DNA of 64,000 bases from the IMG/VR virus record IMGVR_UViG_2061766007_001638. One strand, written 5' to 3'. Shown here in pieces: positions 37,736 to 52,422 of this stretch. This DNA is from an uncultured virus (IMG/VR IMGVR_UViG_2061766007_001638). Its lineage: Duplodnaviria > Heunggongvirae > Uroviricota > Caudoviricetes. A model generated the notes under the pieces. The model worked only from the letters and a program-made list of their open reading frames with translations, did not search any database and had not been told where the DNA came from. A program made the position numbers and the translations under genes. The stretch's first letter is position 1; each line of letters starts with the position of its first letter.

Positions 37736-38440
37736 ATGAACACAGTCATCAGCAAGGTCATTGACGAAGACACGAACGAGTTCCTCGGTTACGACATGGA
37801 CGACTACCTCATGGAGCAGGTCGTCGCGTCCATCGCAAAGAACAACGCGTTCGCCCCGAACGTCGACCGAGTCATCTACAACACCAAGACGACCGACGAG
37901 GTCGCCAAGAAGGACGGCGACGGCAATCCAGTCCTCGACGACAAGGGCCGCGTCGTAAAGGAGACTGTCAAGCTCGAGCGTCCCGTGCTCGTCACGGTCG
38001 TCTACTTCAAGGACGGCACGAAGGTTACGGTCAAGAACAGCGCCAAGGACGGAATCACGCTCGTTGACAAGAAGGTGAAGCTTTCCGACGGCAGCGAGAA
38101 GACCGTCACGACCGCCAGCGACGAGTCGAAGGAAATCGGCCTCGTCTACGCAATCGTCAAGCGCATTATCTGCGACTACGACGACAACGGAACCGTCAAG
38201 AACGCTGGCTTCGCCCGTTTCCTCCACGATGCCGTCAACAAGGCTTTCGTGCAGGACGTGGAGGAGGTCAAGCTCGCTGGAGAGCGGAAGATTCTCAAGA
38301 GCCGCCCCAAGCCCGAGAAGAAGGAGAAGGGGGCCAAGGAAAACCGCAGCCTCGGTGCCGTGGTTAGCGCTCTCTCCAAGACGGTCGAGGGCCTGAAGTC
38401 CATCGTCGAGAATCTTGCAACGACGAAATGCGGTGAGTGA
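37736..38440 (+). CDS. Hypothetical phage protein
   Basis: Strong codon bias; TVVYFKDGTKVTVK...D.KEIGL..AI.K motif. Confidence 0.7.
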   Translation: MNTVISKVIDEDTNEFLGYDMDDYLMEQVVASIAKNNAFAPNVDRVIYNTKTTDEVAKKDGDGNPVLDDKGRVVKETVKLERPVLVTVVYFKDGTKVTVKNSAKDGITLVDKKVKLSDGSEKTVTTASDESKEIGLVYAIVKRIICDYDDNGTVKNAGFARFLHDAVNKAFVQDVEEVKLAGERKILKSRPKPEKKEKGAKENRSLGAVVSALSKTVEGLKSIVENLATTKCGE

Positions 38441-39134
38441 GGAAGTCGTTCTCGCCAACTCCGCGTGCGTGACCGACGGAGACAGGATTGGGATAGTCCT
38501 CAGCCTGTACGTCAGGAACGAAAACGGAAAGTCCTCCTTCAGGGGGGCCTGTGCAAAATGGGACTCTTCTGAAGGATGGGCATGGACGGTTCGGGGCCTG
38601 CAGAATCTGGAGCCAGCTGGAAAGTTCAACCTTTCCTCGCTTGGAATGGAAAACGGATTTTCAGGACTGGCGGTAGTTGACAAGGGAACGACGCTCCTGA
38701 ACTTCAACGCGGCGAAGTATTTCGACAGGCTCCTCAAGAGGGCCAAGCCCCTGGAGGAATTCGAGAAGAGGAACGAGACGCTGAGCGGAAGCTTCAGGTT
38801 CGAGCTCGACTTCGAAGGAAGGGGCCTGTCGGAAATCCCAGGCGGATGGAACGTGTCGCAGGTGAAGAAGAGGCCCAGGGCCAAGAAAAAAATCATATAC
38901 TGAGGGCCTGGTTTTCCTGGAAAAAAGAGCCCGAGAAAGTTTTCTGTAAATAGGAAATGACATCATGAGAAACAATTCAAAAGAGCAACTTAGACCAGCC
39001 AGCATAGCTACACGCTGTGTACTGGACGGCTTTGCGCCTTCGAGTTGATTCTCCAATGCCGTCCATGGAAACTTTTAAGGAATCGACCAGGAATTAACTT
39101 GACGGGTCGGTTCCTTTTTGGTATAATATTGGAC

Positions 39135-39570
39135 ATGAAGCTCCAGTGCTGGGTCTGGAGGGTAAAATGAAAACCCGTAGCTCTTTGACAATTGAACTGA
39201 TTTGGAAACTGCGGATGCACATTGGTCCGCGAGTCGTCACGGCGACTATAAACAGGTATCAGGCCGTGAGCGGCGACCTGGCAAAGGGGTCTGTGGAAAA
39301 AGGGCCTCAGACCAGGTGCGCGTTACGCTTTGGGCGGACGGGAAGATGGGAGACAAAACCATACCTGAAACACTGCCGAAATGGAATAACTGAAGAAAGA
39401 ACAGACGTGGCAAGGTCCGCGTGGCCAGCAGTGGTTCCAGTCGGTGCCCGTACCGTCACCGAAAATGCTTGTGGGTGAGGGTTCCTTTAGACGTAAAGTT
39501 GAACCTGGCATGGGGATATACGCCTCGGGTCCTCTAGAAGGATATGGCTCCCCGAAATTAACCCTCGCGC
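39135..39570 (+). ncRNA. Candidate large structured ncRNA heading the tRNA operon
   Basis: Sigma70 promoter 39099-39127, no SD-led ORF, many hairpins, long-range pairing GTGAGGGTT/AACCCTCGC. Confidence 0.5.
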
Positions 39571-39576
39571 TTTAAT

Positions 39577-39656
39577 GGGGCCGTGGCTCGAGTGTGGTAA
39601 AGGCATCTGCTTTGCAAGCAGACAAATAGTGGGTTCGACTCCCATCGGTTCCACCA
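39577..39656 (+). tRNA. tRNA-Ala(UGC)
   Basis: TCTGC-TTTGCAA-GCAGA, G3:U70, ACCA. Confidence 0.92.
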
Positions 39657-39744
39657 TTGCATCAAATGGAGTTCTCCAGCTCTCTCCCTCCTTTCCCCAG
39701 GACTTTTCCTTTCTTCCTGGGTTTCAAAGAGCTGTTCGATTTAT

Positions 39745-39830
39745 TGCGGGATAGAGTAGAGGTCAAACTCAGGAGGCCCATAACCTCCCGTCGAAAGACA
39801 CGTTGGGTTCAATTCCCACTCCCGCTACCA
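39745..39830 (+). tRNA. tRNA-Met(CAU), initiator-like, long variable arm
   Basis: GGAGG-CCCATAA-CCTCC, 1:72 mismatch, ACCA. Confidence 0.85.
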
Positions 39831-39915
39831 TTTTTGGAGACCACAACGCGGCATTGAATTGCCGTTCATCGGATTGTCCTGAGGGACGTAAAAGAGCTGT
39901 ACCGCTGGAAATAAT

Positions 39916-39991
39916 AGGAGAGTAGCTCAGCGGTGAGAGCAGCATCCTTATAAGTTGTTGGTCGTGGGTTCAATTCCCACCTCTCCTACCA
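39916..39991 (+). tRNA. tRNA-Ile(UAU)
   Basis: Loop CTTATAA, AGGAGAG/CTCTCCT acceptor, ACCA. Confidence 0.85.
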
Positions 39992-39999
39992 CTTTGTGA

Positions 40000-40076
40000 T
40001 GGAAGCGTGGCCGAAAGGTTTAGGCACCATCCTTTTAAGATGGGACATGCGCGTTCGATTCGCGTCGCTTCTACCA
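40000..40076 (+). tRNA. tRNA-Lys(UUU)
   Basis: CCATC-CTTTTAA-GATGG, ACCA. Confidence 0.88.
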
Positions 40077-40089
40077 TCTTTTATAATTT

Positions 40090-40165
40090 ACGGTCTTGGT
40101 ATTCGTGGCGAGTGCCTCGGACTCCAAATCCGAAGAGGGAAGTTCGACTCTTCCAGACCGTGCCA
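40090..40165 (+). tRNA. tRNA-Trp(CCA)
   Basis: TCGGA-CTCCAAA-TCCGA, GCCA. Confidence 0.92.
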
Positions 40166-40279
40166 GTCGCACCTCGCAGAACAAAGCGGTTCTCGCCGAC
40201 GCCATACGAAACTCATTCTCGTGTTGCCCAGAGACGGATAGGGGTTGGCAAAGGTTCCGTGCGATGGCCCGACTTTCAT

Positions 40280-40353
40280 TGGGGCTTCGCATAAAAGCAG
40301 TGCACTGGCCTTTGAAGCCAAGGGAGATGGAGCGTTACCATCAGCCCCAACCA
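40280..40353 (+). tRNA. tRNA-Gln(UUG), atypical T-loop AGCGTTA
   Basis: TGGC-CTTTGAA-GCCA, TGGGGCT/AGCCCCA, ACCA. Confidence 0.85.
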
Positions 40354-40389
40354 AGGGGCCTGGCATTTTGGGGCCTGGAATTTCCAGAA

Positions 40390-40466
40390 TCCATCGTGGC
40401 GCAACTGGCAGTCGCGGAAAGCTCAAACCTTTCATGTTGTGGGTTCGAATCCCGCCGATGGAACCA
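40390..40466 (+). tRNA. tRNA-Leu(CAA), short variable loop
   Basis: GAAAG-CTCAAAC-CTTTC, ACCA. Confidence 0.88.
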
Positions 40467-40544
40467 CCCCAAGTAGCCCAATTGGCAGCAGGCAGGGGAC
40501 TTAAAATCCCCAAAGTGTGGGTCCGAATCCCATCTTGGGGACCA
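40467..40544 (+). tRNA. tRNA-Leu(UAA), short variable loop
   Basis: GGGGA-CTTAAAA-TCCCC, ACCA. Confidence 0.88.
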
Positions 40545-40546
40545 AT

Positions 40547-40621
40547 GCTGGCGTGGCAGAACGGCTATGCACCGACCTCGTAAGTCGGAGGATGAGGTCT
40601 CGGAATCCTCCGCCAGCTCCA
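40547..40621 (+). tRNA. tRNA-Thr(CGU)
   Basis: CCGAC-CTCGTAA-GTCGG, TCCA. Confidence 0.85.
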
Positions 40622-40630
40622 AAAACATCT

Positions 40631-40729
40631 TTGCCAATGGTGAAAAGCTGGATATACACACCCTCATTGGGGAGGGCGCAGGAGGCGAGAGCCCTGCAGT
40701 GCGGTGGTTGCATCCCGCTTGGCAGACCA
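40631..40729 (+). ncRNA. tRNA-like RNA, 6-nt anticodon loop, long variable arm, ACCA end
   Basis: TTGCCAA/TTGGCAG, CCCTC-ATTGGG-GAGGG, GCAGG/CCTGC arm. Confidence 0.65.
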
Positions 40730-40733
40730 ATAT

Positions 40734-40820
40734 GGGAGAAGAACCTGGTTCGAATCCAGGCTTGGGCGAATCCTGAAATACGGTGATGTGCCTGGTCGTC
40801 TATTAGGCAGGACGTCTCCC
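40734..40820 (+). ncRNA. Circularly permuted tRNA-like RNA (YrlA-type topology)
   Basis: Order GGGAGA, T-arm CCTGG-TTCGAAT-CCAGG, looped acceptor, D-arm GTC-TATTAGGCAG-GAC, TCTCCC. Confidence 0.7.
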
Positions 40821-40827
40821 TTTAAAT

Positions 40828-40902
40828 ATTCCCATAGCTCAACGGAAGAGCGCATGGCTACGAACCATGAGGCTGGGGGTTCGAGTCCCTCTGGGAATGC
40901 CA
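40828..40902 (+). tRNA. tRNA-Arg(ACG)
   Basis: CATGG-CTACGAA-CCATG, GCCA. Confidence 0.92.
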
Positions 40903-40934
40903 AAGATGTTTTATTCGACTTTATTTTGATTTAT

Positions 40935-41062
40935 TCGGGCGTGGCGAAATGGTAGCCGCAGGGGACTGTCGGTCTATAGTTAAATGGTAGAATGCAATCA
41001 TGAGAATGGCTGCGATTCTGGTTCAATTCCAGATAGACCGTCCATAATCCCCCGCCGCAAGG
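40935..41062 (+). tRNA. Interrupted tRNA-Asn(GUU) with nested tRNA-like insert at 40970-41044; 3' end lost at N gap
   Basis: GGGGA-CTGT[75-nt insert]TAA-TCCCC restores CTGTTAA. Confidence 0.7.
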
Positions 41063-41104
41063 NNNNNNNNNNNGTGGATTCGAATTTGGTAAATATTAAC
41101 AGTT

Positions 41105-41914
41105 ATGAAACACTTTATTATCTATCAAATTCGAAACAAATTAAACGGAATGATATATGTTGGAAAACATATGACCGAGGACCTAGATGACGGATATATG
41201 GGTTCTGGATTAAGAATACGAAGAGCCATTGAGAAATATGGGATTGATAACTTCGAAAAAACAGTCCTACATGAATGTGCGTCTGAGCAGGAAATGGACG
41301 ATATGGAGGCTGTAATAGTAAACGAGGATTTCATTTCCAGAGATGATGTCTACAATATTATTCCTGGTGGTCTTGGTGGATTTTAGCATGTGAATGAATC
41401 TGGATTGAACATATATCCGAATTGGATTTCGATAGACAAGAGAAATAAAGACCTATTTGAGAAAACTGGAAAATATCCATCTTCTGGATGGCAATCTAGA
41501 ATGAGAGACAAAAACCCAGAAAAATATGAAAAATTTAGAAAAAATCTCTCTAATTCAATAAAACAGCACATCAAGGAGTATGGCTCGGTTTGGTCTGGGA
41601 GAAAACATTCAGATGAAACGAAACGAAAAATGCGAGATATGCATAAAAAGAACCATTATCAGGCTGGAAACAGAAATTCCCAATACGGAACCGTATGCAT
41701 GTTCAACGAAACCATTCGAAAAACGAGACGTGTGAAACCAGACGAAATCTAGAAGTATTTGGAAAGTGGATGGAAGAAGGGAGCGGTATACAACTGGGAT
41801 AGATTCTTTTCAAGACAAAAAGAATCCAAAAATTTTAAAAGGAATGACGACGTGAAGAATCCCATTGGGGTCGCAACTGTACTGGACCGATGGCCGTCGC
41901 AAGACGGTGCATAA
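41105..41914 (+). CDS. GIY-YIG homing endonuclease with NUMOD3-like motif; two in-frame TAG
   Basis: IYQIRN..NG.IYVGKH...DGYMGSG, YN...GG.GG, KHSDETKRKM; frame stays open across TAG 41384 and 41750 to TAA 41912. Confidence 0.85.
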
Positions 41915-42068
41915 AGCTCATGATGCTGAAGGTACGGGTGTTCCTGTTTTTTACGCCTGGCATCGGGCGTCCGTGGAAAGCGTACGGTCCACGGTTAAGG
42001 AAACTGATACGGACTATGTCCCACTAGATAACGAAGGGGGACTGGGGTTCGATTCCCCACTGGTTTCA
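41867..42068 (+). ncRNA. Possible short tmRNA-like / tRNA-like RNA
   Basis: 5' GGGGTCG...CTGGAC and 3' GGAC-TGGGG-TTCGATT-CCCCA-CTGGTTTCA resemble a tmRNA tRNA-like domain. Confidence 0.35.
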
Positions 42069-42084
42069 GATGCACGTTTTCATC

Positions 42085-42159
42085 GCTGGCTTGGCACAGA
42101 GGTTCTGCACCTTCCTTGTAAGAAGGATTACGGGGGTTCGAATCCCTCAGCCAGCTCCA
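42085..42159 (+). tRNA. tRNA-Thr(UGU)
   Basis: CCTTC-CTTGTAA-GAAGG, TCCA. Confidence 0.92.
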
Positions 42160-42164
42160 TTTTT

Positions 42165-42240
42165 CAGGCCATGGTATATCAGCTATGCACGATAGTTTTG
42201 GGAACTATAGGTCCTGGGGCAGCACCAGGTGGCCTGACCA
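42165..42240 (+). tRNA. tRNA-Pro(UGG), atypical T-loop
   Basis: ATAGT-TTTGGGA-ACTAT, CAGGCCA/TGGCCTG, ACCA. Confidence 0.85.
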
Positions 42241-42279
42241 GATTTAGCTTAAAGGTAATGCATTCGGTAAATATATAAC

Positions 42280-43209
42280 ATGAAAAATTATCAATGTGTA
42301 TGCGGGAAATCTTTCTCTAATGGCCGTTCTTTACAGAGTCATGAAAGATGTTGCAAAGAATACAAGAAATCAAAAGAATTAAAACAGCTTGAACTTTTAC
42401 GGGAAAGAGAATCAAAACGTCTTCCAAATGGGATGTTTGTCTGTGAAAATCCAAGATGCAAGAAAGAACATGATGGAAGTTACGGGTCTGGTAGATTTTG
42501 TTCGGATTCGTGTAGGAGGTCTTTTAACGCTCAGCAAAACAATTTTGAGCATATTCGTATCAAAAGAATCGAATATATAAATAAAAATCCTTCTGCAAGA
42601 AGTCCGCATGGAACCTGGAAATGCAAAAATTGTGATTTAATTTTTAATACAAGACAGGAACTTTTTGCTCATAACAAAGAGATTCATCCACACAAAGGAA
42701 CTTCTTGGAACAAAGGACTGACAAAGTATACAGACAAACGTGTTGCCGAAAACGCAAAGAATGTTTCAAAATCAATGAAAGAACGAAGTAAACTTGGATT
42801 ATTAAACAAATGGTTTAGTAAAGATGGATGGACCGATGAAATGAGAAAAAGATTCTCTGATATGAAAAAGAAATTATATATGGAACATCCAGAAAAACAT
42901 CCAAATAGAAAATTGGCAAATAACAAGCACAAAATGACATATCCAGAAAAAGTTGCCTTTGAATGGTTAACAGAACATAACATAAAATTTGTTAATCAAT
43001 ATAAATTAGTCTTAGAGGGAAATGCACGTTATGTTGATTTTCTTGTTAACAATAACATAATAATAGAAATAGACGGTGAGTTTTGGCATCCAATTGGAAA
43101 CAAAAATGATTTTTGCAAGGATGAACTAGCTAAAAAACATGGATATGTAACATACAGAATAAGGGCATCAGAACGAATAATTGATAAATTACAAGAAATT
43201 TTTGGATAA
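42280..43209 (+). CDS. Zinc-finger + DUF559/Vsr-like endonuclease (free-standing homing-type)
   Basis: CxC/CxxC fingers, HDGSYGSGRFCS, WNKGLTK, TYPEK...YVDF...IEIDGEFWH; AT-rich relative to flanks. Confidence 0.8.
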   Translation: MKNYQCVCGKSFSNGRSLQSHERCCKEYKKSKELKQLELLRERESKRLPNGMFVCENPRCKKEHDGSYGSGRFCSDSCRRSFNAQQNNFEHIRIKRIEYINKNPSARSPHGTWKCKNCDLIFNTRQELFAHNKEIHPHKGTSWNKGLTKYTDKRVAENAKNVSKSMKERSKLGLLNKWFSKDGWTDEMRKRFSDMKKKLYMEHPEKHPNRKLANNKHKMTYPEKVAFEWLTEHNIKFVNQYKLVLEGNARYVDFLVNNNIIIEIDGEFWHPIGNKNDFCKDELAKKHGYVTYRIRASERIIDKLQEIFG

Positions 43210-43218
43210 TCTTTTGTT

Positions 43219-43310
43219 GGGCTTGTGGCGAAATTGGCAGCACGCGACAGTTTGAGGGACTGTTGGGAAGTCACAGTACCGTGGAGGTTCGAGTCCTCTC
43301 AGGCCCACCA
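43219..43310 (+). tRNA. tRNA-Leu(GAG)
   Basis: ACAGT-TTGAGGG-ACTGT, long variable region, ACCA. Confidence 0.88.
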
Positions 43311-43445
43311 ACCTTGGCAAGGGACACTTGGACGCGCACGGTAGGGTTGGCGCGTCTTTACCTGGACAGCATGGTCCAGCCTGGACTAATAACCATATTC
43401 CACGACGTGTTTCTGGAATAGGTGGTCCGAAAAACCGCATCTTTT

Positions 43446-43524
43446 GGCATCGTACCCAATGCTGGAACAGGGACTGGTCTGCAAAACCAGTTTAACGTGG
43501 GTTCAATTCCCTCCGATGTCTCCA
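43446..43524 (+). tRNA. tRNA-Cys(GCA)
   Basis: CTGGT-CTGCAAA-ACCAG, TCCA. Confidence 0.92.
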
Positions 43525-43525
43525 T

Positions 43526-43602
43526 GCTCGCGTAGTCCAATTGGCAGAGTCGACACGTTCAGGTCGTGTAAAGTGTGGGTTCGAATCCCTCCGCGAGTAC
43601 CA
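43526..43602 (+). tRNA. tRNA-Leu(CAG), short variable loop
   Basis: ACACG-TTCAGGT-CGTGT, ACCA. Confidence 0.88.
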
Positions 43603-43679
43603 CCCCTCTTGTCGCAACTGGCAGTCGAGGCAGATTTAGATTCTGTTTGTTGGGGGTTCGAATCCCTCAGAGGGGACCA
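43603..43679 (+). tRNA. tRNA-Leu(UAG), short variable loop
   Basis: GCAGA-TTTAGAT-TCTGT, ACCA. Confidence 0.88.
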
Positions 43680-44418
43680 TTTTCCTTTCGAGATACCTTT
43701 TCTCGAAAAGGGCCACCACTTCGGGCTCTGGTCTGTAAGTATGCAATTTACCCATTGCGTCTGTTTGGTCGAAGCAGCATATCCGCCTTGGTGCACTACC
43801 TCTCGTCTTGTTCGAAATTATGGTCGAAGGAACTATCCTGACTCCGTTCGAATGGACTATGCAGGAATAAAGGCAGTCGTCGTTGTATGTATTGACTATC
43901 TCGTCTGTCAGGAACCACTCGTATCCACGGAACATCCATCTTGCGACTAACGACCCTGGAGCGAAACACCTGATTCTCTAACCCAGGACAAGCCCCTTGG
44001 AAATATGGCTCTTCGCGGTTCCAGATGTTATGGCGCATTTCCTGCCATATGCGTCATATTCGATTATCCTGCACTTCAGGAGGTCCGAGGGAATAAGCTG
44101 GTCGTCGTCTATGAAAAGGATTACGTCGTCGTCATCCAAAAGAGGGAGAATCGGGAATATCTTCTTCATGCTCTTCGTGTTCGGTCCTGGAACCCAGTTG
44201 ATTCTGAAATTCTTGTATTTTCTGGTCATTTCCAGAAGTTCCTTCGGAAGCTCGTCTTCCTTCTTTGGAAATTCCTCTTCTGAGAGATTCAGGAACATGA
44301 CGTCTGGTTTCTCGAATCCCTTAAAAACCGCGTTTACCACCGTGGCGCAGTTGTCTATCCTTTTTGTCCACGACGTCATCGTCACGACCTTTTTTCCGAT
44401 TTTTCTCATTATGGACAT
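43636..44418 (-). CDS. GT-A fold glycosyltransferase-like protein; one in-frame TAG
   Basis: VVTMTSW..RI...KPD...LNLS..EF, KSMKK.FP, IDDD, later NDD; ORFs 43978..44418 and 43636..43935 share a frame across TAG 43978-43980. Confidence 0.75.
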
Positions 44419-44438
44419 ATTTACGGTGATTTTTTTAT

Positions 44439-44516
44439 GCTTCTGTAGACAAACTGGTTACAGTCACCTCCCTCTCAAGGAGGAATTTGTGGGTTCAAGT
44501 CCCTCCAGAAGCGCCA
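44439..44516 (+). tRNA. tRNA-Glu(CUC)
   Basis: CCTCC-CTCTCAA-GGAGG, GCCA. Confidence 0.92.
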
Positions 44517-44522
44517 TTTTAT

Positions 44523-44609
44523 GGAGAGTTGTGCGGAATGGTAACGCACCGCATTGGAAGTGCGGCTCCTTAACTGGAATTGTCCGTTCGAGTCGGACAC
44601 TCTCCGCCA
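44523..44609 (+). tRNA. tRNA-Ser(GGA)
   Basis: CCGCA-TTGGAAG-TGCGG, long arm, GCCA. Confidence 0.92.
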
Positions 44610-44610
44610 G

Positions 44611-44698
44611 GGATGGATTCTCCTAAACGGTAAAGGTCCCGCCTCGAAAGCGGGTGGGCCAAAAGCCCGTGCAGGTTCAAGTCCTGCTCCATCCGCCA
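44611..44698 (+). tRNA. tRNA-Ser(CGA)
   Basis: CCCGC-CTCGAAA-GCGGG, long arm, GCCA. Confidence 0.92.
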
Positions 44699-44702
44699 TC
44701 TT

Positions 44703-44766
44703 GGAGAGGTGCGATAATGGTATTCGAGCGGCTTNNNNNNNNNNNNNNNNNNNNNNNNNNNNNNNN
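44703..44766 (+). tRNA. Partial tRNA, probably Ser (anticodon in gap)
   Basis: GGAGAGG 5' strand and D-arm like the neighbouring Ser tRNAs. Confidence 0.55.
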
Positions 44767-44768
44767 TT

Positions 44769-44856
44769 GGAAGAATGTGATAATGGTAGTCAGACGGTCT
44801 TGAAAACCGTTGGGGTCTAAAAGCCCTTGGGGGTTCGAGTCCCTCTTCTTCCGCCA
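44769..44856 (+). tRNA. tRNA-Ser(UGA)
   Basis: ACGGT-CTTGAAA-ACCGT, long arm, GCCA. Confidence 0.92.
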
Positions 44857-44860
44857 TAAT

Positions 44861-44938
44861 GCCCCTGTAGACAAACTGGTTACAGTCGCCAGGTTTTCAT
44901 CCTGGAGCTTGAGGGTTCGACTCCCTCCTGGGGTGCCA
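44861..44938 (+). tRNA. tRNA-Glu(UUC)
   Basis: CCAGG-TTTTCAT-CCTGG, GCCA. Confidence 0.92.
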
Positions 44939-44970
44939 TTTCGAGGAAAGTTCTTTCCGTATAATATTTC

Positions 44971-45191
44971 AGATGCAGATGGAAGTTCCTATGCTAAATT
45001 CATGGATTATGAAAACGTATACTTCCCGCATCTCCATTTGACGCAGACGACGTTCCTATCAATTGGTATAAGTTTTGGGCCAAAAGCCCAAAATGAAACG
45101 GTCCGAATCCGTATATACGTCCCGCGTCTTTCCCTTTCTGGGCAAAGGATGTTCCTATTATTCCTACGACGAAACAATATACATCCCGCCC
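44971..45191 (+). ncRNA. Three tandem small RNAs sharing a conserved bulged helix (Y-RNA-stem-like)
   Basis: Units 44971-45033, 45040-45128, 45140-45191: GC-A(N)2-3-NGANGT-TCC-TAT...(A/G)TA-T-ACNTCC-C-GC with compensatory changes; same stem closes 50603-50729. Confidence 0.7.
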
Positions 45192-45197
45192 TATTTT

Positions 45198-45273
45198 GGG
45201 GTGTTGGTAGAACGGCTTCATATTTCTCACTGTCTATGAGAAGAAACGGGTTCAACTCCCGTACACCCCGCCA
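45198..45273 (+). tRNA. tRNA-Asp(GUC)
   Basis: TCTCA-CTGTCTA-TGAGA, GCCA. Confidence 0.9.
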
Positions 45274-46543
45274 ACTTTCCAGGTTATCAGAATCACAGGA
45301 TGTGCCTCGACTATTTCCTGGAATAAGATTTGACGTTTCCTCATGGAAACATTTTTTGAAAAATGTGACATTTTGACACNNNNNNNNNNNNNNNNNNNNN
45401 NNNNNNNNNNNNNNNNNNNNNGAATTTATTCAATTTTTATTTCGTATAATATTCATGAGAGCGGGACTAAGTAGTAAAAAACAAACAAAAAAGAAAAAAC
45501 GCGGAGCTAAAATCCACAAAAAGCCAAATNNNNNNNNNNNNNNNNNNNNNNNNNNNNNNNNNNNNNNNNNNNNNNNNNNNNNNNNNNNNNNNNNNNNNNN
45601 NNNNNNNNNNNNNNNNNNNNNNNNNNNNNNNATTTCCCGCTCAAAAAAGCACTTTTAAAGTAAAAAACAAGTCCCCTCCAAGAATTCGACCAGTTTTCGT
45701 CTTTCCCGTGGAATTGACTTGACGGAGGTTCCTCTGTTTGGTATAATATATGGCACAAAGGAAAAACAAAAAGGAGAAGAGAAAATGGACTGGTATGGAA
45801 ACAACGGCTTCAGGTGCGTGAATCTCCACGAGAACGAATACGGGGAAGAGGTCTGCAGGTACACGGACTGTCCGTGCGGCTGTTTCTCAAGGAGGGAATG
45901 CTCCTTCTCGGACTGCTTCGACGGGATTCCTGGGGAGTTTGACTGAAAGACGGACTTGGAAGAAAGAAAGAGAGAAATTAAAATGGAAGAAAACGGAAAA
46001 GGGATGGAAAAGCGGATTGAGTTCGCGGGGAAATGCGAGGAGCTCGCGGAGTTGGGGAGGGAAGTCCCGAGCGGGGGATGGGACGTCCCGATGAACTTCA
46101 TCGTGGACTCTCTCAGGAACTGGGCGAAGTGCTATCGGATGCCGCCCAGGAACATTGGATGAGGGAGAGGGAAGCGCATGGAAAGGGATTTGGAGAAAAA
46201 GAGATTCGAAATGGCGTCGATGCTTGGGTGGGCGCTGTTCGTGAAGTTCCTCAAGTTCCTGGCGGCGGCTGGGGCGGTGTTCCTCCTGANNNNNNNNNNN
46301 NNNNNNNNNNNNNNGCTGGAAATTCCGTCCAGGGGGTCAGGATTTCCCCCTCGGACTTCAGGTGAAGGAGGAGGGGAACGTGGATATGGAACTAGTCCTT
46401 TCCCGCGAAAGGATGGAGGCTTATGGGGCGTCCTGGTGACTGAATATGGTTTTCTTCTGGATTTGACTTGACTGGTCTTCGGACCTTTGGTATAATATTG
46501 GCACATTTTGGTTCTTTGGCAATTGAGGTTTTTCTTAAAAGGA

Positions 46544-46689
46544 GTTCCCGTAGCTCAAAGGAAGAGCAGGAGCCTTCGTCGGGGTCGTTCAAGCAGGACG
46601 TCCAGCACTATCTGGAAAATCCGAGTTCGAGTCTCGGACCTGGCACCGTAAGCTTCTGGTTGGAGGTTCGAGTCCTCTCGGGAATGCCA
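46544..46689 (+). tRNA. Interrupted tRNA-Arg (UCU, or UCG with a 1-nt shifted junction) with nested tRNA-like insert at 46578-46648
   Basis: GTTCCCG/CGGGAAT-GCCA, GGAGC-CTTC[71 nt]TAA-GCTTC, complete outer D and T arms. Confidence 0.85.
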
Positions 46690-46698
46690 ATTTGCGAT

Positions 46699-46773
46699 TG
46701 GTCCATGGTGAAACAGACATCACGGAATCCTCCTAAGATTCAATTTCGGGTGCGATTCCCGATGGACCAACCA
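46699..46773 (+). tRNA. tRNA-Arg(CCU)
   Basis: GAATC-CTCCTAA-GATTC, TGGTCCA/TGGACCA, ACCA. Confidence 0.88.
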
Positions 46774-46874
46774 TAGTCCGAACTCATGGTTCCACCCAAC
46801 AGATTCGGACTTTTATCTTTGGTAAATAATTCAGGACGTTAGTGGAATAACGTCTTGAAAATAAAGGTAAAAAT

Positions 46875-47747
46875 ATGAAATGCGAAGAGTGTGGAAATGA
46901 ACACGACGGCTCGTATGGAAGNNNNNNNNNNNNNNNNNNNNNNNNNNNNNNNNNNNAAGAGATAAAAATTGGAAATCCCCTTTCTCTAATCCAAAAAATA
47001 AGAGAAACAAAAAAGCACCGTTTGGGACATGGAAATGTGAAGTTTGTGATTTTATAGCAGAAACAAAAAACGAAAAATATGTTCATATACGAAAATATCA
47101 TCCAGAAACATTGATAAGACATGCGTGGAACAAAGGTTTAACAAAATACACGGATAAAAGAGTAAATCAAGGTTGTGAGTCAAAAAGAAAAAAATATGAA
47201 AATGGAGNNNNNNNNNNNNNNNNNNNNNCAGGAAACAAAGGAAAAATTATCGAGAGCACAAAGAAGTCTTTCTGTCAGAAGAAAATGCAAAAAGACTGTT
47301 CCATATATAAGAAAAGATGGAAGTGTAGTTCTCGTAGATTCTTCATACGAGATAAAACTTGCAAAAATTCTTGATGAAAATAATATAGAATGGATAAGAC
47401 CAGACCCGATTCCGTGGCTGGATGTAAAAGGAAAGACACATTTCTATTTTCCAGATTTTTATTTGACAGACTATGACATTTATCTCGACCCAAAGAACGA
47501 TTACTGTTTTGTTCAACAATCTGAAAAGATATCGTATTTTACAAAAAATTACAAAAATATCTTCTTTTTAAGAAAAGAACAATTAACAAAAGAACACGTA
47601 AATTCATTAATTGGACGGTATATCAGCTGGTTAGATAGTCGCTCTGATAAAGCGAAGGTCGTGGGTTCGAGTCCCACCCGTCCAACCAAAGGAACAAAGG
47701 AACAATGGAAGACAATCGGATGGAGAAGATACGCGAGGTATTGGTGA
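46875..47747 (+). CDS. Zinc-finger + PD-(D/E)xK endonuclease; N-terminus paralogous to 42280; frame broken by N gaps
   Basis: CEECG.EHDGSYG, GTWKC..C, WNKGLTKYTDKRV, then DSSYE..LA..LD..NI.W...YFPDFYL...IYLDPK. Confidence 0.75.
47612..47688 (+). tRNA. tRNA-Ile(GAU)
   Basis: TCGCT-CTGATAA-AGCGA, ACCA. Confidence 0.92.
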
Positions 47748-48106
47748 AGGCCAGGAAGGCCATATGCCACCATGCCGAGCATGTATGCCAAAGCTTGGCG
47801 TGGGAGAACAGCACAATAAATGCGAACTGCGGCGACGTGTTGTGCGCCCACAGGGATTTGTGCGAGGCGAAGACGGCAATCGACGAAGCCCTTTCCTTGC
47901 CGCGCCGCAACTGCGATGTCGGGACTGCGGACGAGCAGGCGGAGAGATTCGAGCGGTTCTGTGCGGAACACCACGAAGAGTGGAAAAATGGAAAGCCACT
48001 TATGGCGTGGACTTGTGATTGCCCATGCTACCAGACAAGTAAAAATTCGTGCAATTATTTTGTGTGGGCACAGATGCCATACTCGGAGGAAGGAGATGTG
48101 AAATGA
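47705..48106 (+). CDS. Cys-rich hypothetical protein
   Basis: SD-led ORF with RRNCDVGTADEQAERF..FC...C.C....WAQMPY. Confidence 0.7.
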   Translation: MEDNRMEKIREVLVKARKAICHHAEHVCQSLAWENSTINANCGDVLCAHRDLCEAKTAIDEALSLPRRNCDVGTADEQAERFERFCAEHHEEWKNGKPLMAWTCDCPCYQTSKNSCNYFVWAQMPYSEEGDVK

Positions 48107-48350
48107 GGACGGCGGATTTCATAAAGGAGCACTGCATTGGGACTTTCTGCCCAGACTTCGACTTCGAGCGTGGATGCGGGGCGTTCGACGGCGAGGAGTG
48201 CGACGAGGCGTTCTACCACCCAGAGTGGAGAGGAATGAGGATGGCCGACAGGGTCACGCGCCTCTGCGAAAGGCGGTCTCGAGAGAAGGGGACTTCCGTA
48301 TAATATGTTTGTTGATTTGATTGTTCTTTGAAAATTGAAAAATAATTTTT

Positions 48351-48425
48351 GGCCGCTTCGTATAGTGGTTATTATCGCAGACTCTTAATCTNNNNNNNNN
48401 NNNNNNNNNNNNNNNNNNNNNNNNN
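48351..48425 (+). tRNA. tRNA-Lys(CUU), 3' half in gap
   Basis: GCAGA-CTCTTAA-TCT. Confidence 0.75.
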
Positions 48426-48509
48426 NNNNNNNNNNNNNNNNNNNNNNNNNNNACGGCTGGGGAGGTTCGAGTCCTCCGCTGGGATTCCATGTATAATATT
48501 AAAAGCAAG

Positions 48510-48648
48510 GCAAGATTGGCAGAGAAGTTATGCGCCACCCTTCCCGTGGAATAGTTCAAGCAGAACGCCACAAAGGAAATCTTGGTTCAAGTCCAAGTTC
48601 CGCGACCAAAGGTGGTTTACGCCGATGCGAGTTCGGCATCTTGCTCCA
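48510..48648 (+). tRNA. Interrupted tRNA-Gly(UCC) with nested tRNA-like insert at 48545-48608
   Basis: GCAAGAT/ATCTTGC-TCCA, CCACC-CTTCC[64 nt ending ACCA]AA-GGTGG. Confidence 0.88.
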
Positions 48649-48765
48649 TTTCTACCCTGAACTCATGGTTGCCGCCAACAGATTCAGGGTGATTATTTCG
48701 TATAATTGTAAATAGATGTGTGAACGTGTTACGGCAATAACACACTAATAACGGGAAAAATAATT

Positions 48766-49369
48766 ATGAAGAAGCATTACTTGGTTTACAAAACCACTTG
48801 CCTATTGAATGGCAAGATTTACATTGGTCAACATTAGACTTATGACCTCAACGATAGCTACGTTGGAAGCGGTAGGGATTTGAAAGAGGATATTCGTAAA
48901 TTCGGGTCTGAAAATTNNNNNNNNNNNNNNNNNNNNNNNNNNNNNNNNNNNNNNNNNNNNNNNNNNNNNNNNNNNNNNNNNNNNNNNNNNNNNNNNNNNN
49001 NNNNNNNNNNNNNNNNNNNNNNNNNNACTGGGAGGATTAAAAGTTGCTATGCGATGTAAGACTGACCCAGAATACAATAGAAGGTTGTTAGACAAAAAAC
49101 GAATGGTTATGCGAATGGAGTGGAAAACCAACCCTGAAAGATTTAGAAATTGTTGTTGTTTTAATCCTTCGTTTAGAAAGACTTTTTTGGGAAAACACCA
49201 TACCGAAGAAACGAAACAAAAGATGCGAGAAAAAGCTCATCTTCGCACAGGAAAAAAGAATAGTTCTTTTGGNNNNNNNNNNNNNNNNNNNCAAGAAGGT
49301 GAAGAAAGAAGAAGCAGAAACCTTCTTGAACCAAGGCTGGAAACTCGGAAGAAAAATGAGTTTCAATAA
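48766..49369 (+). CDS. GIY-YIG homing endonuclease with NUMOD3-like motif; in-frame TAG; gapped
   Basis: YLVYKTT...NGKIYIGQH*TYDLND.YVGSG (TAG 48835), KHHTEETKQKM. Confidence 0.8.
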
Positions 49370-49380
49370 ATGATTTTAAT

Positions 49381-49455
49381 GCGAACGTGGTACATCAGCA
49401 GTACACCAATCTGCCAGATTGGNNNNNNNNNNNNNNNNNNNNNNNNNNNNNNNNN
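49381..49455 (+). tRNA. tRNA-Gly(GCC), 3' half in gap
   Basis: CCAAT-CTGCCAG-ATTGG. Confidence 0.75.
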
Positions 49456-49693
49456 NGCAGTCCAGAACCTTTTATGCCGTTTCCAACTGGAAAGGTGACT
49501 GCGTCTAAAAATGAAACGGGCTCTGCCGCCACGAGATTGGTGATAGTTTGTTGGCCGTTGCCTACAAGAAAACGGCTTGGAAAGCGTCCAACCCTCAGAG
49601 TACTGGGTTCCATTCCTTCAATCACCAAGGAAAAGGACGCACGTTTTAAGGTAAATACGATATCTAACAATAGAAACTGAAAGAAGACGAAAA

Positions 49694-50290
49694 ATGAAGA
49701 AAATAGTTGCACTTGCCGCTTCGGCAATCCTCTNNNNNNNNNNNNGCGTTCGAATTTGTGAACAGCGCGGACGGATACAGCTATGTACAGATTAACCAGG
49801 ACTTGGAGTCGTTCTCGTTCACTCCAGACTGGCACTCCCTCGGGAACGCTGGAAGGGTTGGATACGTGGTATACTCCGCAGATATGGGAGATAGAGAGAG
49901 GGCCGCATACATGGAGGCCAACGCGAACAACCCCCAGTTTGGAAAGCATGTTAATGGTGGAACGGTGAACCTTGGTTCATTGAATGCGGGTGACAAGGTT
50001 GGATTTTACGAGAGCCGCCCCAATGGCGGTGTTTACACCCATACTTCCTTTGAGGACTGGAAGGGTGGAACATGGCTGGCGTTTGACAAGAATGGCGGTC
50101 ATGGCAANNNNNNNNNNNNNNNNNNNNNNNNNNNNNNNNNNNNNNNNNNNNNNNNNNNNNNNNNAGTGGCGGTGGTTCTGGTGGAGGAACAGGTGCGCCA
50201 AACGGAGCTCCGCTTCCAGGTGCGTTGGCCGTGATTCTCGTCGGCGCAGTTGGTGCTGGAGCATGGAAGGCTGGAAAGAAGAAAGCCTGA
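49694..50290 (+). CDS. Exported protein with PEP-CTERM-like sorting signal (gapped)
   Basis: Signal peptide MKKIVALAASAIL; Gly-rich linker then GAPLPG-hydrophobic TM-KKK. Confidence 0.7.
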
Positions 50291-50298
50291 AGAAGATT

Positions 50299-50394
50299 TC
50301 GGACGTAGGGGAGTATCGCAAACCCAGCCTCGTGAGGGAGGCCAGCCAGGACAATCAATGGCTTTCGAAGGTGAAATTCCTTCCGTTCGGACCA
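50299..50394 (+). ncRNA. tRNA-like RNA, 6-nt anticodon loop, long variable arm, ACCA
   Basis: TCGGACG/CGTTCGG, GCCTC-GTGAGG-GAGGC, GAAGG-TGAAATT-CCTTC. Confidence 0.65.
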
Positions 50395-50602
50395 AGTCTC
50401 TTTTATCCTAGTTTCCGACCGAGAGAGTAAACGGGGAGGCAAGACGGATTGCCTGAAGCCGAAAACGTGCCAGCTGGAGGGAGAAAACACGCGTCTCCGT
50501 AAAACCTGGCCAGGAAGTTGCCAGTCACCACAAGTAGGCTCCGAGTCCATGTCGTCCAAGGTTCATGACCCTGCGAAACAGGAACTCCGTATGATATTTT
50601 CT

Positions 50603-50729
50603 GGGCATAGAAGGTTCCTATTATTTCGACGACCAATCTCTGGGTTGCGGGTTCGAGTCCCGTCGCTGACGCACAACGCGTCCGTGTAGCTCAACTGGCA
50701 GAGCAAGAGACAGAATATACCTTCCGCCC
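50603..50729 (+). ncRNA. YrlA-like Y RNA (permuted tRNA domain on a long bulged terminal stem)
   Basis: GGGC..GAAGGT/ACCTTC.GCCC stem; TCTCT, T-arm GCGGG-TTCGAGT-CCCGT, closed acceptor GACGC-ACAAC-GCGTC, D-arm GCTC-AACTGGCA-GAGC, AGAGA. Confidence 0.8.
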
Positions 50730-50734
50730 TTTAT

Positions 50735-50819
50735 TGCCAGGTGCCAGATAAGATAATGGGGCGGGCTGTAAACCCGCTGTCTTCGGACTTAGGTGGAGCG
50801 TTACCACCCCTGGCAACCA
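50735..50819 (+). tRNA. tRNA-Tyr(GUA), atypical T-loop AGCGTTA
   Basis: GCGGG-CTGTAAA-CCCGC, variable arm, ACCA. Confidence 0.88.
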
Positions 50820-51108
50820 TTCTCCATCAAATGACCGTCGAGCTCGAGAAAGACGGTCTAGGATGGAAGAAAACTAAAGTAGGCGCTGGTCTCTGGTGGT
50901 CCAGCCAGCGTTGACAACGGGAAGAAACGGACAAGGCGAAATCCTGTTCGGACAGTTCGGATTGGGTCTTCGAGCGGAGTGACCACCCGTGGCGAAGACA
51001 TATCCGTGGAGTCGATGGCGAGAGATTGNNNNNNNNNNCAGCGTATGCGCACGAATGCTGGACAATCGCAAGTGCTGGTTTAAATCCGTTGACAGCGCGT
51101 TTCCTTTT

Positions 51109-51185
51109 GGTCGAGTAGCTCAGCTGGTTGGAGCGTCTCGTTGACATCGAGAAGGTCGGCAGTTCGAATCTGCCCCCGACCACCA
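51109..51185 (+). tRNA. tRNA-Val(GAC)
   Basis: TCTCG-TTGACAT-CGAGA, ACCA. Confidence 0.92.
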
Positions 51186-51720
51186 CTTCCAAGTTTTACG
51201 GACACGCGAGATGGGTTCGATTCCCACTCCGAAGGCTGTTCGAATCCGCCTCGGGCCTGGTGGCATACGTCTGGAACAGGCGGGNNNNNNNNNNNNNNNN
51301 NNNNNNNNNNNNNNNNNNNNNNNNNNNNNNNNNNNNNNNNNNNNNNNNNNNNGAGGGGACCGACGGTTCGAGTCCGTCCAAACCTACCAAGATTAACTTG
51401 ACAAATGATTGATGTATGGTATAATATACCACAGTCAGGAGAAAACAAAATGAGAGATTTCTGGTTAGGAGTGTTCGCTGGTGCGTGCTTCACTTTGATT
51501 ATTGTTCTTGCGATAATGTCGATAGTCAATACAGAGGATGGATACAGGGACAAGATGACGATAGAGTACATCTGTCCAGACAAGGAATACGAGAGGAAGA
51601 TGTTCCTTGACATGGTGAACGGAAGCGGAATCGAGACAAATTTCATATACAAGGATTACCATTACGGAAAACATTCCATAAAGTACATCCTGAAAAATCC
51701 AAAGTGACTTAAAACCAAAT

Positions 51721-51838
51721 GGCTTGATACTCAGGTAACTGGTCCTGGCCCGTGGTGAAACGGGTTCCCTGACATTGATGGGCTTGTCGACCGCCCGTCG
51801 GGGAGACAGCGGAGTCGATATCCGCAAGACAGCCACCA
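51721..51838 (+). ncRNA. tRNA-like RNA, 6-nt loop, very long variable arm, ACCA
   Basis: CCCGT-GGTGAA-ACGGG, TCCCTGAC/GTCGGGGA arm, GCGGA-GTCGATA-TCCGC. Confidence 0.55.
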
Positions 51839-51985
51839 ATTNNNNNNNNNNNNNNNTGATAATGTCTTCAGTTTATTGCAATAGACAAAAAGACATTGGA
51901 AGATGGCCAACAGAACACCTTCTATGAATCCATGGTTAGTAGAGGGAGACCCGTGGTTCGATTCCACGATGACCCGACCATTTAC

Positions 51986-52060
51986 GGGCCGATAATTCAA
52001 CGGTAGAATACTTCACTGGCAGTGAAGATATGCAGGTNNNNNNNNNNNNNNNNNNNNNNN
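51986..52060 (+). tRNA. tRNA-Ala(GGC), 3' end in gap
   Basis: CTTCA-CTGGCAG-TGAAG. Confidence 0.75.
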
Positions 52061-52227
52061 NNNNNNNNNNNNNNNNNNNTAATCCCAGAAGGGCGTAGCA
52101 AGGCTTGAATTCACCTTCCGCTTGAAACATGGGACGTGGCTTGCAGAATCTAGATATGCAAGTTATACGAGCGCGGCAGCATGGAGCTGCTAGTTCCGTG
52201 AGAATCGGATGTCGTCGCCAATTTAGA

Positions 52228-52301
52228 GGGCCGCTAGTTCAATAGTAGAACACCTCGTTCGCAACGAGGAGACTTCGGAGCGTTACCGAACGTGTCCACC
52301 A
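52228..52301 (+). tRNA. tRNA-Ala(CGC), imperfect acceptor, atypical T-loop
   Basis: CCTCG-TTCGCAA-CGAGG, G3:U70, ACCA. Confidence 0.75.
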
Positions 52302-52347
52302 TTTCCTGGCTTTTAGATAGTTGTCTAATGATATTCATGCACAAAAT

Positions 52348-52422
52348 GGCCAAGTAGCTCAGGAGTAGAGCGGTTGCCTGAAGAGCAACGCGTCGGTGGT
52401 GCGAAACCATCCTTGGCCACCA
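52348..52422 (+). tRNA. tRNA-Phe(GAA)
   Basis: GTTGC-CTGAAGA-GCAAC, ACCA. Confidence 0.9.

Follow-up and report, generated by a model that had tools for sequence, protein, structure and literature searches.

tRNA-shaped inserts interrupt the anticodon loops of three phage tRNA genes

A 64,000-nucleotide (nt) metagenome sequence assigned to Caudoviricetes (IMG/VR record IMGVR_UViG_2061766007_001638; the whole stretch analysed is called the window below) carries a tRNA array between 39.5 and 53.2 kb in which ARAGORN and Rfam recognize about 33 tRNA genes. Three genes of this array are split in the anticodon loop by an intervening element that is itself shaped like a tRNA. All three lie on the plus strand and are referred to here as locus 1 (tRNA-Asn(GTT), beginning at position 40935), locus 2 (tRNA-Arg(TCT), 46544–46689) and locus 3 (tRNA-Gly(TCC), 48510–48648). 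An initial annotation, made from the letters of the sequence, had described these genes as otherwise normal tRNAs with inserts of 64–75 nt and had suggested that the inserts are removed by a new splicing route. In each case, the whole insert is one tRNA unit that runs from position +1 of its acceptor stem to a terminal CCA or CCG, with nothing else included. It is placed between bases 35 and 36 of the outer tRNA in the Asn and Arg genes, and between bases 36 and 37 in the Gly gene. This split-tRNA feature is real, non-random and rare, and the inserts are real intervening elements that interrupt pre-existing tRNA genes of the phage within the anticodon loop.

At locus 2, the 5′ exon (46544–46577) ends after anticodon base C35, the 71-nt insert occupies positions 46578–46648, and the 3′ exon (46649–46689) resumes with TAA and then supplies the 3′ strand of the anticodon stem, the T-arm, the acceptor strand, a G and an encoded CCA. 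When introns are allowed, ARAGORN reports tRNA-Arg(tct) with a 71-nt intron at exactly 46578–46648 (‘ccttc-Intron-taagc’), and the Rfam tRNA model matches 46544–46686 as a single tRNA with a large insertion (45.2 bits). Both exons have their best match in the tRNA-Arg(ACG) gene at 40828, and the body of outer tRNA 2 is a paralogue of this second arginine tRNA of the phage. The insert forms six of seven acceptor pairs, a T-arm of sequence CCGAG/TTCGAGT/CTCGG and a 5-base-pair (bp) ‘anticodon’ stem closed by a 6-nt loop, and it ends in ACCG.

The 5′ exon of locus 3 (48510–48544) ends after C36 and is followed by a 64-nt insert (48545–48608) that has a 7-bp acceptor stem, a D-arm (GTTC/AAGCA/GAAC), a vestigial 2-bp ‘anticodon’ arm, a T-arm (CTTGG/TTCAAGT/CCAAG) and an ACCA end. 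The 3′ exon (48609–48648) begins with AA and continues with the anticodon stem strand GGTGG, a T-arm with the unusual loop TGCGAGT, the acceptor strand, a T and CCA. ARAGORN, again with introns allowed, finds a 139-nt tRNA with a 64-nt intron, and at minimum energy the whole 139 nt fold into one cloverleaf nested in another. The program sets its cut 2 nt upstream and so arrives at the anticodon TCA, whereas the boundaries given in the initial annotation yield TCC; DNA contigs in which 48544 is joined to 48609 (described below) support TCC. The TCA call would make this gene a UGA suppressor, a candidate reading that is argued against by the frequent TGA stop codons. Outer tRNA 3 carries G1:C72, C2:G71 and U73, which we take to be glycine identity elements.

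Without their inserts, outer genes 2 and 3 are flawless cloverleaves. Because the former is paralogous to tRNA-Arg(ACG) and the latter carries the glycine identity elements, the restored anticodons fit the tRNA bodies. The intron calls at both loci, the Rfam match at locus 2 and the fold of locus 3 confirm that loci 2 and 3 are split tRNAs with inserts of 71 and 64 nt. Furthermore, the proposal that intact copies of the three isoacceptors are missing holds for the 34–35 ARAGORN calls in the window, none of which is a further Asn(GTT), Arg(TCT) or Gly(TCC) gene, although such genes could lie in the 43 masked runs. Many of the calls obtained from ARAGORN with forced or long introns merely fuse adjacent tRNAs, and a weak call of tRNA-Thr(agt) at 51739–51980 with a 165-nt ‘intron’ that is not tRNA-like was not accepted.

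The resemblance of the inserts to tRNAs exceeds what chance would produce, as judged from their E-values against the Rfam tRNA model. Taken alone, insert 1 scores 41.6 bits (E = 5e-6 in a 16-kb search), insert 3 scores 39.9 bits against the whole model (E = 5.9e-8) and insert 2 scores 26.9 bits over its positions 1–71, just below the 29-bit cut-off (E = 2.5e-4; single-stretch searches for inserts 2 and 3). Inserts 2 and 3 each fold alone as a cloverleaf, the minimum-energy fold of insert 2 having the 6-nt ‘anticodon’ loop. Acceptor pairing in inserts 1, 2 and 3 is 7/7, 6/7 (with G.A at the seventh pair) and 7/7; the T-stem is complete (5/5) in all three, the T-loops read TTCRAnT, and the stem is followed by RCC. 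With the ends TCCA, ACCG and ACCA, two C residues are kept throughout. Only the anticodon arm is disabled, being represented by an 8-nt loop, a 6-nt loop and a 2-bp vestige, respectively; there is no hairpin stalk in the inner units, and these units cannot decode. The folds and model scores therefore uphold the original description of inserts with their own acceptor stem, D-arm and canonical T-arm, an NCCA or ACCG end and a degenerate anticodon arm. Beyond generic tRNA features, the three inserts have little sequence in common (mean column identity 64% in a poor alignment).

To our knowledge, bacterial-type tRNA genes carry only self-splicing introns. Group I and group II intron families of Rfam give no match at E ≤ 1 in positions 38000–54000, at E ≤ 10 within inserts 2 and 3, or at gathering score in the whole window, and no self-cleaving ribozyme family of Rfam matches in or beside the inserts. 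A bulge-helix-bulge (BHB) intron of the archaeal/eukaryal kind has its two splice sites in 3-nt bulges with a 4-bp helix between them and is cut by an EndA-type splicing endonuclease. In the window, the insert junctions are found in an internal loop that separates the outer anticodon stem from the acceptor stem of the insert, with 4–5 nt in the 5′ strand and 6–7 nt in the 3′ strand. The folds contain no 4-bp helix between bulges, and thus the BHB geometry is absent. With tRNA matches only in Rfam, a length of 64–75 nt and no BHB geometry, the inserts are neither group I or II introns nor BHB introns, in keeping with the initial annotation, in which they looked like neither.

Locus 1 has a truncated outer gene. 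Its 5′ half (40935–40969) comprises the acceptor strand, a D-arm of the long-arm (class II) type, the 5′ strand of the anticodon stem and the loop bases CTGT, in a gene with a class-II-like long variable arm. The 75-nt insert (40970–41044), called by ARAGORN as tRNA-?(gaga) with an 8-nt loop, has a 7-bp acceptor stem, a D-arm with GG, a T-arm of sequence TCTGG/TTCAATT/CCAGA and a TCCA end. The remainder of the outer gene (41045–41087) consists of the loop bases TAA, the anticodon stem strand TCCCC, the start of a variable-arm hairpin, a masked run at 41063–41073 and GTGGA-TTCGAAT; beyond the mask, the 3′ strands of both the T-stem and the acceptor stem are missing. A complement of the 5′ acceptor strand in a T-arm context was not found anywhere across 41045–43300 (three loose regular-expression hits). 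Instead, from about position 41088 the gene runs into TTTGGTAAATAT, a promoter seen ahead of the other endonuclease genes.

Removal of insert 1 restores the 7-nt loop CTGTTAA within a 15-nt anticodon stem-loop core, GGGACTGTTAATCCC, that is identical in the uninterrupted tRNA-Asn(GTT) of G001, a complete 433,895-bp IMG/VR phage with terminal repeats. Within the window, the best matches of the 5′ half of outer tRNA 1 are the Leu genes, and a Leu-like body with an Asn anticodon looked inconsistent. However, an uninterrupted 87–88-nt tRNA-Asn(GTT) with a long variable arm is present in all three IMG/VR relative loci, which represent two distinct arrays: L059 (G001; 3115–3202, reverse, 88 nt), L070 from a near-twin of G001 (7394–7481, reverse) and L069 from a third phage (7761–7847). 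These relatives show that the Asn reading and the insert boundaries are right. The hairpin-forming long variable arm of their Asn(GTT) genes is a class-II-like build that is unexpected for Asn. For locus 1, therefore, the insert, the 5′ half, the closing anticodon stem, the Asn reading and the boundaries stand, but the gene is not otherwise normal. The core common to locus 1 and its relative, like the paralogy of outer tRNA 2 with tRNA-Arg(ACG), also indicates that exact removal gives sensible tRNAs, in line with the restored 7-nt loops of the initial annotation.

In a metagenome window rich in similar tRNA genes, nested loci could be an assembly artefact created by a chimeric join of tRNA genes, and misassembly had been named as what would undo the proposal. 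We aligned contigs of four DNA runs to the window at an identity of at least 85%. Locus 2 is spanned by an exact 2577-nt contig of run X1 and, in run X4 of another study, by a 504-nt contig that covers 46488–46830 with five substitutions and four gaps. Over insert 3, at 48561, no exact X1 contig was found and the depth comes from a variant contig alone, which leaves some room for an artefact; this 313-nt X1 contig (depth 23.6), however, carries the whole nested arrangement of locus 3 with 10 substitutions and one gap in 143 nt, or about 7% divergence. Six of these differences are listed: four are at unpaired insert positions and one turns the acceptor pair U3.G into U-A, and no insert helix is broken. 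With locus 2 spanned in runs of two studies and a variant of locus 3 spanned in X1, we consider a chimeric assembly extremely unlikely.

The same contigs reveal variation that coincides with the insert edges. In one X1 and one X4 contig, from different studies, 48544 is joined to 48609, so that exactly the 64-nt insert is missing or replaced, at an unambiguous position. Similarly, the match of an X5 contig to the window stops exactly at 46577; that of an X4 contig stops exactly at 40969 and, following 338 unlike bases, picks up again at 43219. In these departures and joints, the inserts behave as separate modules with the same edges as the tRNA-shaped fold. Parts of the stretch are without contig cover in X3, X4 or X5, and cover over the endonuclease genes described below differs among runs. 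A segment conserved in run X3 (41840–42084) is not significantly structured (z = −1.28).

Among the frames of the window, several resemble phage protein families without a known function, and four encode homing endonucleases. A GIY-YIG/NUMOD3 endonuclease gene (gene 1, 41105–41914, plus strand; Pfam GIY-YIG and NUMOD3, phrog_314 at E = 9.8e-36) with two in-frame TAG codons starts 60 nt after insert 1. Gene 3 (46875–47612, plus strand) is endonuclease-like, with a zinc finger and a nuclease domain and two masked stretches, and is judged by eye to be a paralogue of the gene at 42280–43209; it starts 185 nt past outer tRNA 2, with tRNA-Arg(CCT) in between. Gene 4 (48766–49370, plus strand; SegE_GIY-YIG and NUMOD3), which is partly masked and has one in-frame TAG, starts 117 nt after outer tRNA 3, and the remaining endonuclease gene follows tRNA-Thr(TGT). 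With four endonuclease genes among about 35 tRNA genes, an immediate endonuclease neighbour at two of three loci has a probability of about 0.03 by a rough, post hoc estimate, and we regard this adjacency as only suggestive. Probably, the inserts spread or persist at the DNA level together with the neighbouring free-standing endonuclease genes.

A hairpin whose 21-nt loop, CTCATGGTTsCvCCCAACAGA, is conserved also occurs in two copies (46776–46812 and 48653–48690, plus strand), each of them between a tRNA and an endonuclease gene. Their stems of 6–7 bp show compensating differences (TCCGAA/TTCGGA versus CCCTGAA/TTCAGGG), and a search of IMG/VR with the hairpin pattern gave no matches.

A known arrangement that invites comparison is collaborative homing, in which a free-standing endonuclease is paired with an endonuclease-less intron, as reportedly in mobE/I-TevIII of phage T4 and psbA of cyanophages. 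As in those pairs, an endonuclease gene adjoins a gene with a small insert that would split a likely target site, and in the contigs the insert and the endonuclease are each present in some strains and not in others. Unlike them, the window involves three different tRNAs and an insert that is not a known self-splicing intron, and the G001 homologue of one endonuclease is found without a neighbouring insert.

These DNA-level features allow a reading in which the inserts are never spliced. Here, they would be insertions in dispensable tRNA genes, either endonuclease passengers or products of break repair, perhaps protecting the endonuclease’s own genome from cutting at the site, and the outer genes would look intact only because the insertions are young. 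Phage tRNA genes are generally dispensable, outer gene 1 has already been truncated by an endonuclease cassette, and endonuclease genes lie beside all three loci. An insert can be missing or replaced at its exact boundaries in DNA; in run X5, the region of endonuclease gene 3 has a depth of 0 and a contig departs exactly at 46577, the edge of insert 2. In addition, none of the three relative loci holds a nested tRNA, hence the nested state would be recent and confined to a sub-lineage. However, three independent insertions run exactly from +1 to CCA or CCG and each restores a 7-nt loop; repair scars would be less exact. Decay is also uneven, with acceptor and T-arm intact and the anticodon loop alone disabled, the variant that is about 7% diverged retains the whole arrangement, and a single endonuclease could not recognize three different tRNA sequences. 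Permanent insertion without splicing is a strong rival that we nevertheless hold to be doubtful.

The reading that we favour, with a probability of roughly 40%, is that the inserts are excised from RNA by tRNA-processing enzymes, namely RNase P and a second endonuclease that cuts after CCA, and that the exons are then joined by an Rnl1-type ligation. In the precursor RNA, the insert would fold as a tRNA mimic. Host RNase P would recognize its stacked acceptor and T-arm together with RCC and cut at insert position +1, leaving the 5′ exon with a 3′-OH. A second endonuclease would cut right after CCA or CCG and leave the 3′ exon with a 5′-phosphate; this is the position at which the CCA-encoding and sometimes abutting tRNA genes of the phage would themselves acquire their 3′ ends. 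The outer acceptor and anticodon stems would keep both halves together while the anticodon-loop nick is closed by an ATP-dependent ligase of the Rnl1 type.

Several features fit this scheme. All inserts have the features of an RNase P substrate: a 7-bp acceptor stem coaxial with a 5-bp T-stem, a canonical T-loop and 3′ RCC. The 3′ RCC(A) of a precursor tRNA pairs with the P15 loop of the RNase P ribozyme. For the 3′ cut, RNase Z-family enzymes of Thermotoga and RNase BN of Escherichia coli can cut after an encoded CCA. In the window, CCA is encoded in 32 of the 34 called tRNA genes and two gene junctions have a spacer of 0 nt, which suggests that a cut directly after CCA is routine in this array. 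For the joining step, G001 encodes an RNA ligase of the T4 Rnl1 type (PF09511, 58.3 bits, in a 396-aa frame), and scans of this genome found no RtcB, PF09414, Lactamase_B_2 (the RNase Z family), PolyA_pol (CCA enzyme) or PNK3P. The presence of Rnl1 without RtcB fits a chemistry of 3′-OH and 5′-phosphate ends.

A number of observations weigh against excision at the RNA level. The runs that carry the stretch are cattle-gut metagenomes from several studies, with no RNA run among them. Because outer gene 1 is truncated after the T-loop, at least one nested locus cannot yield a working tRNA. The nested double cloverleaf of locus 2 has an energy of −45.8 kcal/mol, which is 6.4 above the computed minimum, and the minimum-energy fold pairs its two similar T-arms with each other. 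Insert 2 ends in CCG rather than CCA, and if RNase Z cut behind the discriminator base, three surplus bases would stay in the loop. In the diverged variant of locus 3, a change of G to A at 48614 falls in the outer anticodon stem and may be uncompensated, and at the joint of 48544 to 48609 the 64 nt may be replaced by other letters instead of being absent. Ligase, RNase and CCA-enzyme families are found in none of 55 window frames searched with Pfam or 51 searched with PHROGs, and the window has no homologue of the G001 Rnl1. The ligase of G001 is no proof of splicing, since nested tRNAs are absent from this phage. Finally, the homologue of endonuclease gene 3 in G001 follows tRNA-Arg(CCT) without a nested Arg(TCT), which weakens the link between endonuclease and insert.

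RNA excision could also proceed by other chemistry, in which a phage endonuclease or cuts leaving 2′,3′-cyclic phosphate and 5′-OH ends are followed by an RtcB-type ligase and the tRNA shape serves only as a module for folding or recognition. RtcB is present in many hosts (10 of 14 control genomes), and a Pistol self-cleaving ribozyme, which creates cyclic-phosphate and 5′-OH ends, lies just upstream of the array. As noted above, however, no ribozyme family matches in or beside the inserts and G001 has Rnl1 but not RtcB; moreover, the kept RCC and the acceptor/T-arm stack fit RNase P specifically. We judge this chemistry very improbable. The Pistol ribozyme itself (39232–39295, plus strand; 37.9 bits against an Rfam cut-off of 34.5) follows a GGTATAAT promoter at a distance of about 110 nt, precedes the array’s first tRNA by about 280 nt and may trim the leader of the array transcript.

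Alternatively, the insert itself could be the product, a non-decoding tRNA mimic that acts as decoy or regulator of tRNA-binding host enzymes or defences, with the outer tRNA as a stable scaffold for its expression and processing; rejoining of the outer halves would then be secondary. The inserts end in CCA as mature tRNAs do, and two further elements suggest that the phage uses tRNA mimicry elsewhere. One is a free-standing tRNA-shaped element at 22794–22862 (plus strand), among early genes and far from the array, which scores 51 bits against the Rfam tRNA model, is called tRNA-?(ac) by ARAGORN, has a 6-nt ‘anticodon’ loop and no CCA, and is the best local match of insert 1; it is disabled like the inserts and may be a processing signal or decoy. 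The other is a YrlA-like tRNA-mimic core (31.6 bits, below the family cut-off). Nevertheless, the limited sequence common to the inserts gives them no evident common target, and neither the constant site in the anticodon loop nor the restoration of a 7-nt loop is explained. Both the idea of the insert as product and the secondary role of rejoining that goes with it seem improbable to us.

The YrlA-like core (50639–50711, plus strand, with flanks at about 50610–50730) matches positions 23–88 of the YrlA model at a local E of 1.6e-5, the family cut-off being 69 bits. Its T-arm, closed acceptor-like hairpin and D-arm come in permuted order, and its flanks, as judged by eye, can pair to form a long stem. 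The window showed no Ro/Rsr gene.

The initial annotation knew of no description of this arrangement. Earlier examples exist: in the consulted parts of Devoto et al. [quoted passage not shown] According to Table S6 of that article, the Lak inserts are 79–141 nt long; one gave an Rfam tRNA hit and, by our reading, the others have a T-arm and an acceptor-like stem. When the sequences in this table are read by eye, the Lak build consists of a small hairpin, an A/T spacer and a mini-tRNA that ends 1–2 nt after the acceptor stem with no CCA, in genomes whose tRNA genes do not encode CCA. We found no later literature on tRNA introns of this type.

As far as these parts of the article go, the Lak introns and the window loci are alike in having a short, non-ribozyme insert with a tRNA-like fold in the anticodon loop, including that of a Gly(TCC) gene. 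They also have in common insert-less alleles in relatives, represented here by Asn(GTT) in all three relative loci and by the joint at locus 3, where the insert is absent or replaced. Set against these Lak entries, the window inserts run from +1 to NCCA or ACCG without a hairpin or spacer, lie inside or just after the anticodon, and belong to a lineage unrelated in composition (48% G+C in the window versus about 26% in Lak). The window loci are a minimal form of the Lak-type phenomenon in a different phage lineage.

In both phages, the 3′ edge of the insert is the position at which the phage’s own tRNAs end. We infer from this, as the strongest hint available, that tRNA end-processing enzymes define the cuts. 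A general splicing pathway built from proteins and a ribozyme, in which the intron is a disabled tRNA that would be removed by RNase P, a tRNA 3′-end endonuclease and a phage Rnl1-type ligase, with the same logic applying to the Lak introns, whose boundary follows the discriminator base in a phage with tRNA genes that lack CCA, is a tentative proposal that we put forward as possible but unlikely. Given its exact mature-tRNA ends, an insert may even have originated in RNA, through a ligase that joined a free tRNA into an anticodon loop cut by a nuclease. That the inserts serve to hide anticodons from nucleases, as had also been considered, is pure speculation.

Components of the favoured excision reading have counterparts elsewhere. 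In MALAT1 mascRNA and in the mitochondrial ‘tRNA punctuation’ model, tRNA-shaped folds reportedly direct cuts by RNase P and a 3′ tRNA endonuclease. As proposed here, a non-decoding tRNA shape sets exact cut points in a longer transcript; those systems are eukaryotic or organellar and their flanks are not rejoined, whereas the flanks in the window are tRNA halves that would need ligation. In phage T4, Rnl1 and Pnkp repair tRNA whose anticodon loop carries a nick made by the anticodon nuclease PrrC. This Rnl1 substrate resembles the predicted intermediate in being a stem-held tRNA with an anticodon-loop nick and 3′-OH and 5′-phosphate ends, and the PF09511 (RNA_lig_T4_1) gene of G001 is of this kind. 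T4 Rnl1, however, acts in repair after attack by a host nuclease, whereas the proposed reaction removes an encoded insert, and there is no such gene in the window.

Bacterial group I tRNA introns likewise sit in the anticodon loop and have homing endonucleases nearby, as described in the consulted portion of Hausner, Hafez and Edgell 2014 (PMC3984707), which places all phage introns known by 2014 in protein-coding genes. Going by that portion, group I introns are self-splicing, have a conserved core and are several times larger than the window inserts, for which there is no intron-family match.

The Lak tRNA introns have been unexplained since 2019, and the window presents the same idea in an unrelated rumen phage and in its barest form. 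Inserts that are bare tRNA units give base-exact predictions: RNase P would cut at 46577/46578 and 48544/48545, a second cut would fall after CCG or CCA, and Rnl1 would seal 3′-OH and 5′-phosphate ends. If this holds true, it would be a third tRNA-splicing route and a new role for RNase P and phage RNA-repair ligases, with tRNA repair enzymes acting as a splicing machine. Should splicing be disproved, these loci would still illustrate clearly how a phage tRNA array is remodelled by mobile inserts and homing endonucleases.

Apart from the contigs described above, searches for relatives found no nested genes of this kind. In the three relative loci, G001, L069 and L070, neither the inserts nor outer tRNAs 2 and 3 have a homologue beyond matches at the level of the T-arm, and blastn with 46400–46800 (401 nt around locus 2) gave no match in a GenBank phage collection. 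The pattern from D-arm to T-arm that is common to inserts 2 and 3 has one match in IMG/VR, in a tape-measure-like coding region without a tRNA, which we attribute to chance; its 17 matches in bacterial genomes are also read as chance, six of the 17 having been scanned and found to hold no tRNA. A neighbouring protein of 133 aa has no IMG/VR relative and occurs at seven metagenome loci, none with a tRNA. Two human-faecal GenBank phage records that are related through a 280-aa protein have two and zero tRNAs, none of them nested.

The best conserved protein of the window (54210–55051) has a homologue of 72% identity in G001 and distant homologues, of 25–27% identity, in Enterococcus and Lysinibacillus phages. 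The tRNA arrays of the window and G001 also have stretches in common at 70–100% identity. From these similarities we infer that the window is part of a very large rumen phage related to G001. All convincing genes lie on the plus strand and are mostly small frames, each behind a promoter motif GGTATAAT that has 86 copies on the plus strand and seven on the minus strand. Judging from this strand bias, the PHROG matches and the Enterococcus and Lysinibacillus phage homologues, the context is bacterial. Positions 1–39000 (plus strand) form an unusually regular early-gene region, with dozens of small genes that have near-identical N termini (MKGN/K.PM...) and their own promoters.

Treating TGA as a sense codon lengthens open frames, but such recoding was rejected, as the genes are on the plus strand and most listed frames end in TGA or TAA. 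Four in-frame TAG codons occur in three otherwise open, homologue-like frames: two in 41105–41914, one in 48766–49370 (both plus strand) and one in 43639–44418 (minus strand, 260 aa). The TAG of GIY-YIG gene 4 is at a conserved position. These codons may reflect amber read-through or, in some genes, recoding of TAG; a tRNA with a CTA anticodon was not seen in the unmasked parts of the window.

Non-canonical T-loops recur in the array and beyond it. The loop AGCGTTA is present in Gln(TTG), Tyr(GTA) and one tRNA-like element (40280–40353, 50735–50819 and 52229–52301), TGCGAGT in the 3′ exon of locus 3 and GGCAGCA in Gly(GCC) of G001 (L059, reverse strand, 12715–12790), and ARAGORN at default settings misses some tRNAs with such loops. 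Two plus-strand segments, 51186–51284 and 51900–51990, contain clusters of T-arm-like pieces and of tRNA 3′ ends that lack matching 5′ halves, partly beside masks, and these clusters may be further broken or rearranged tRNA genes.

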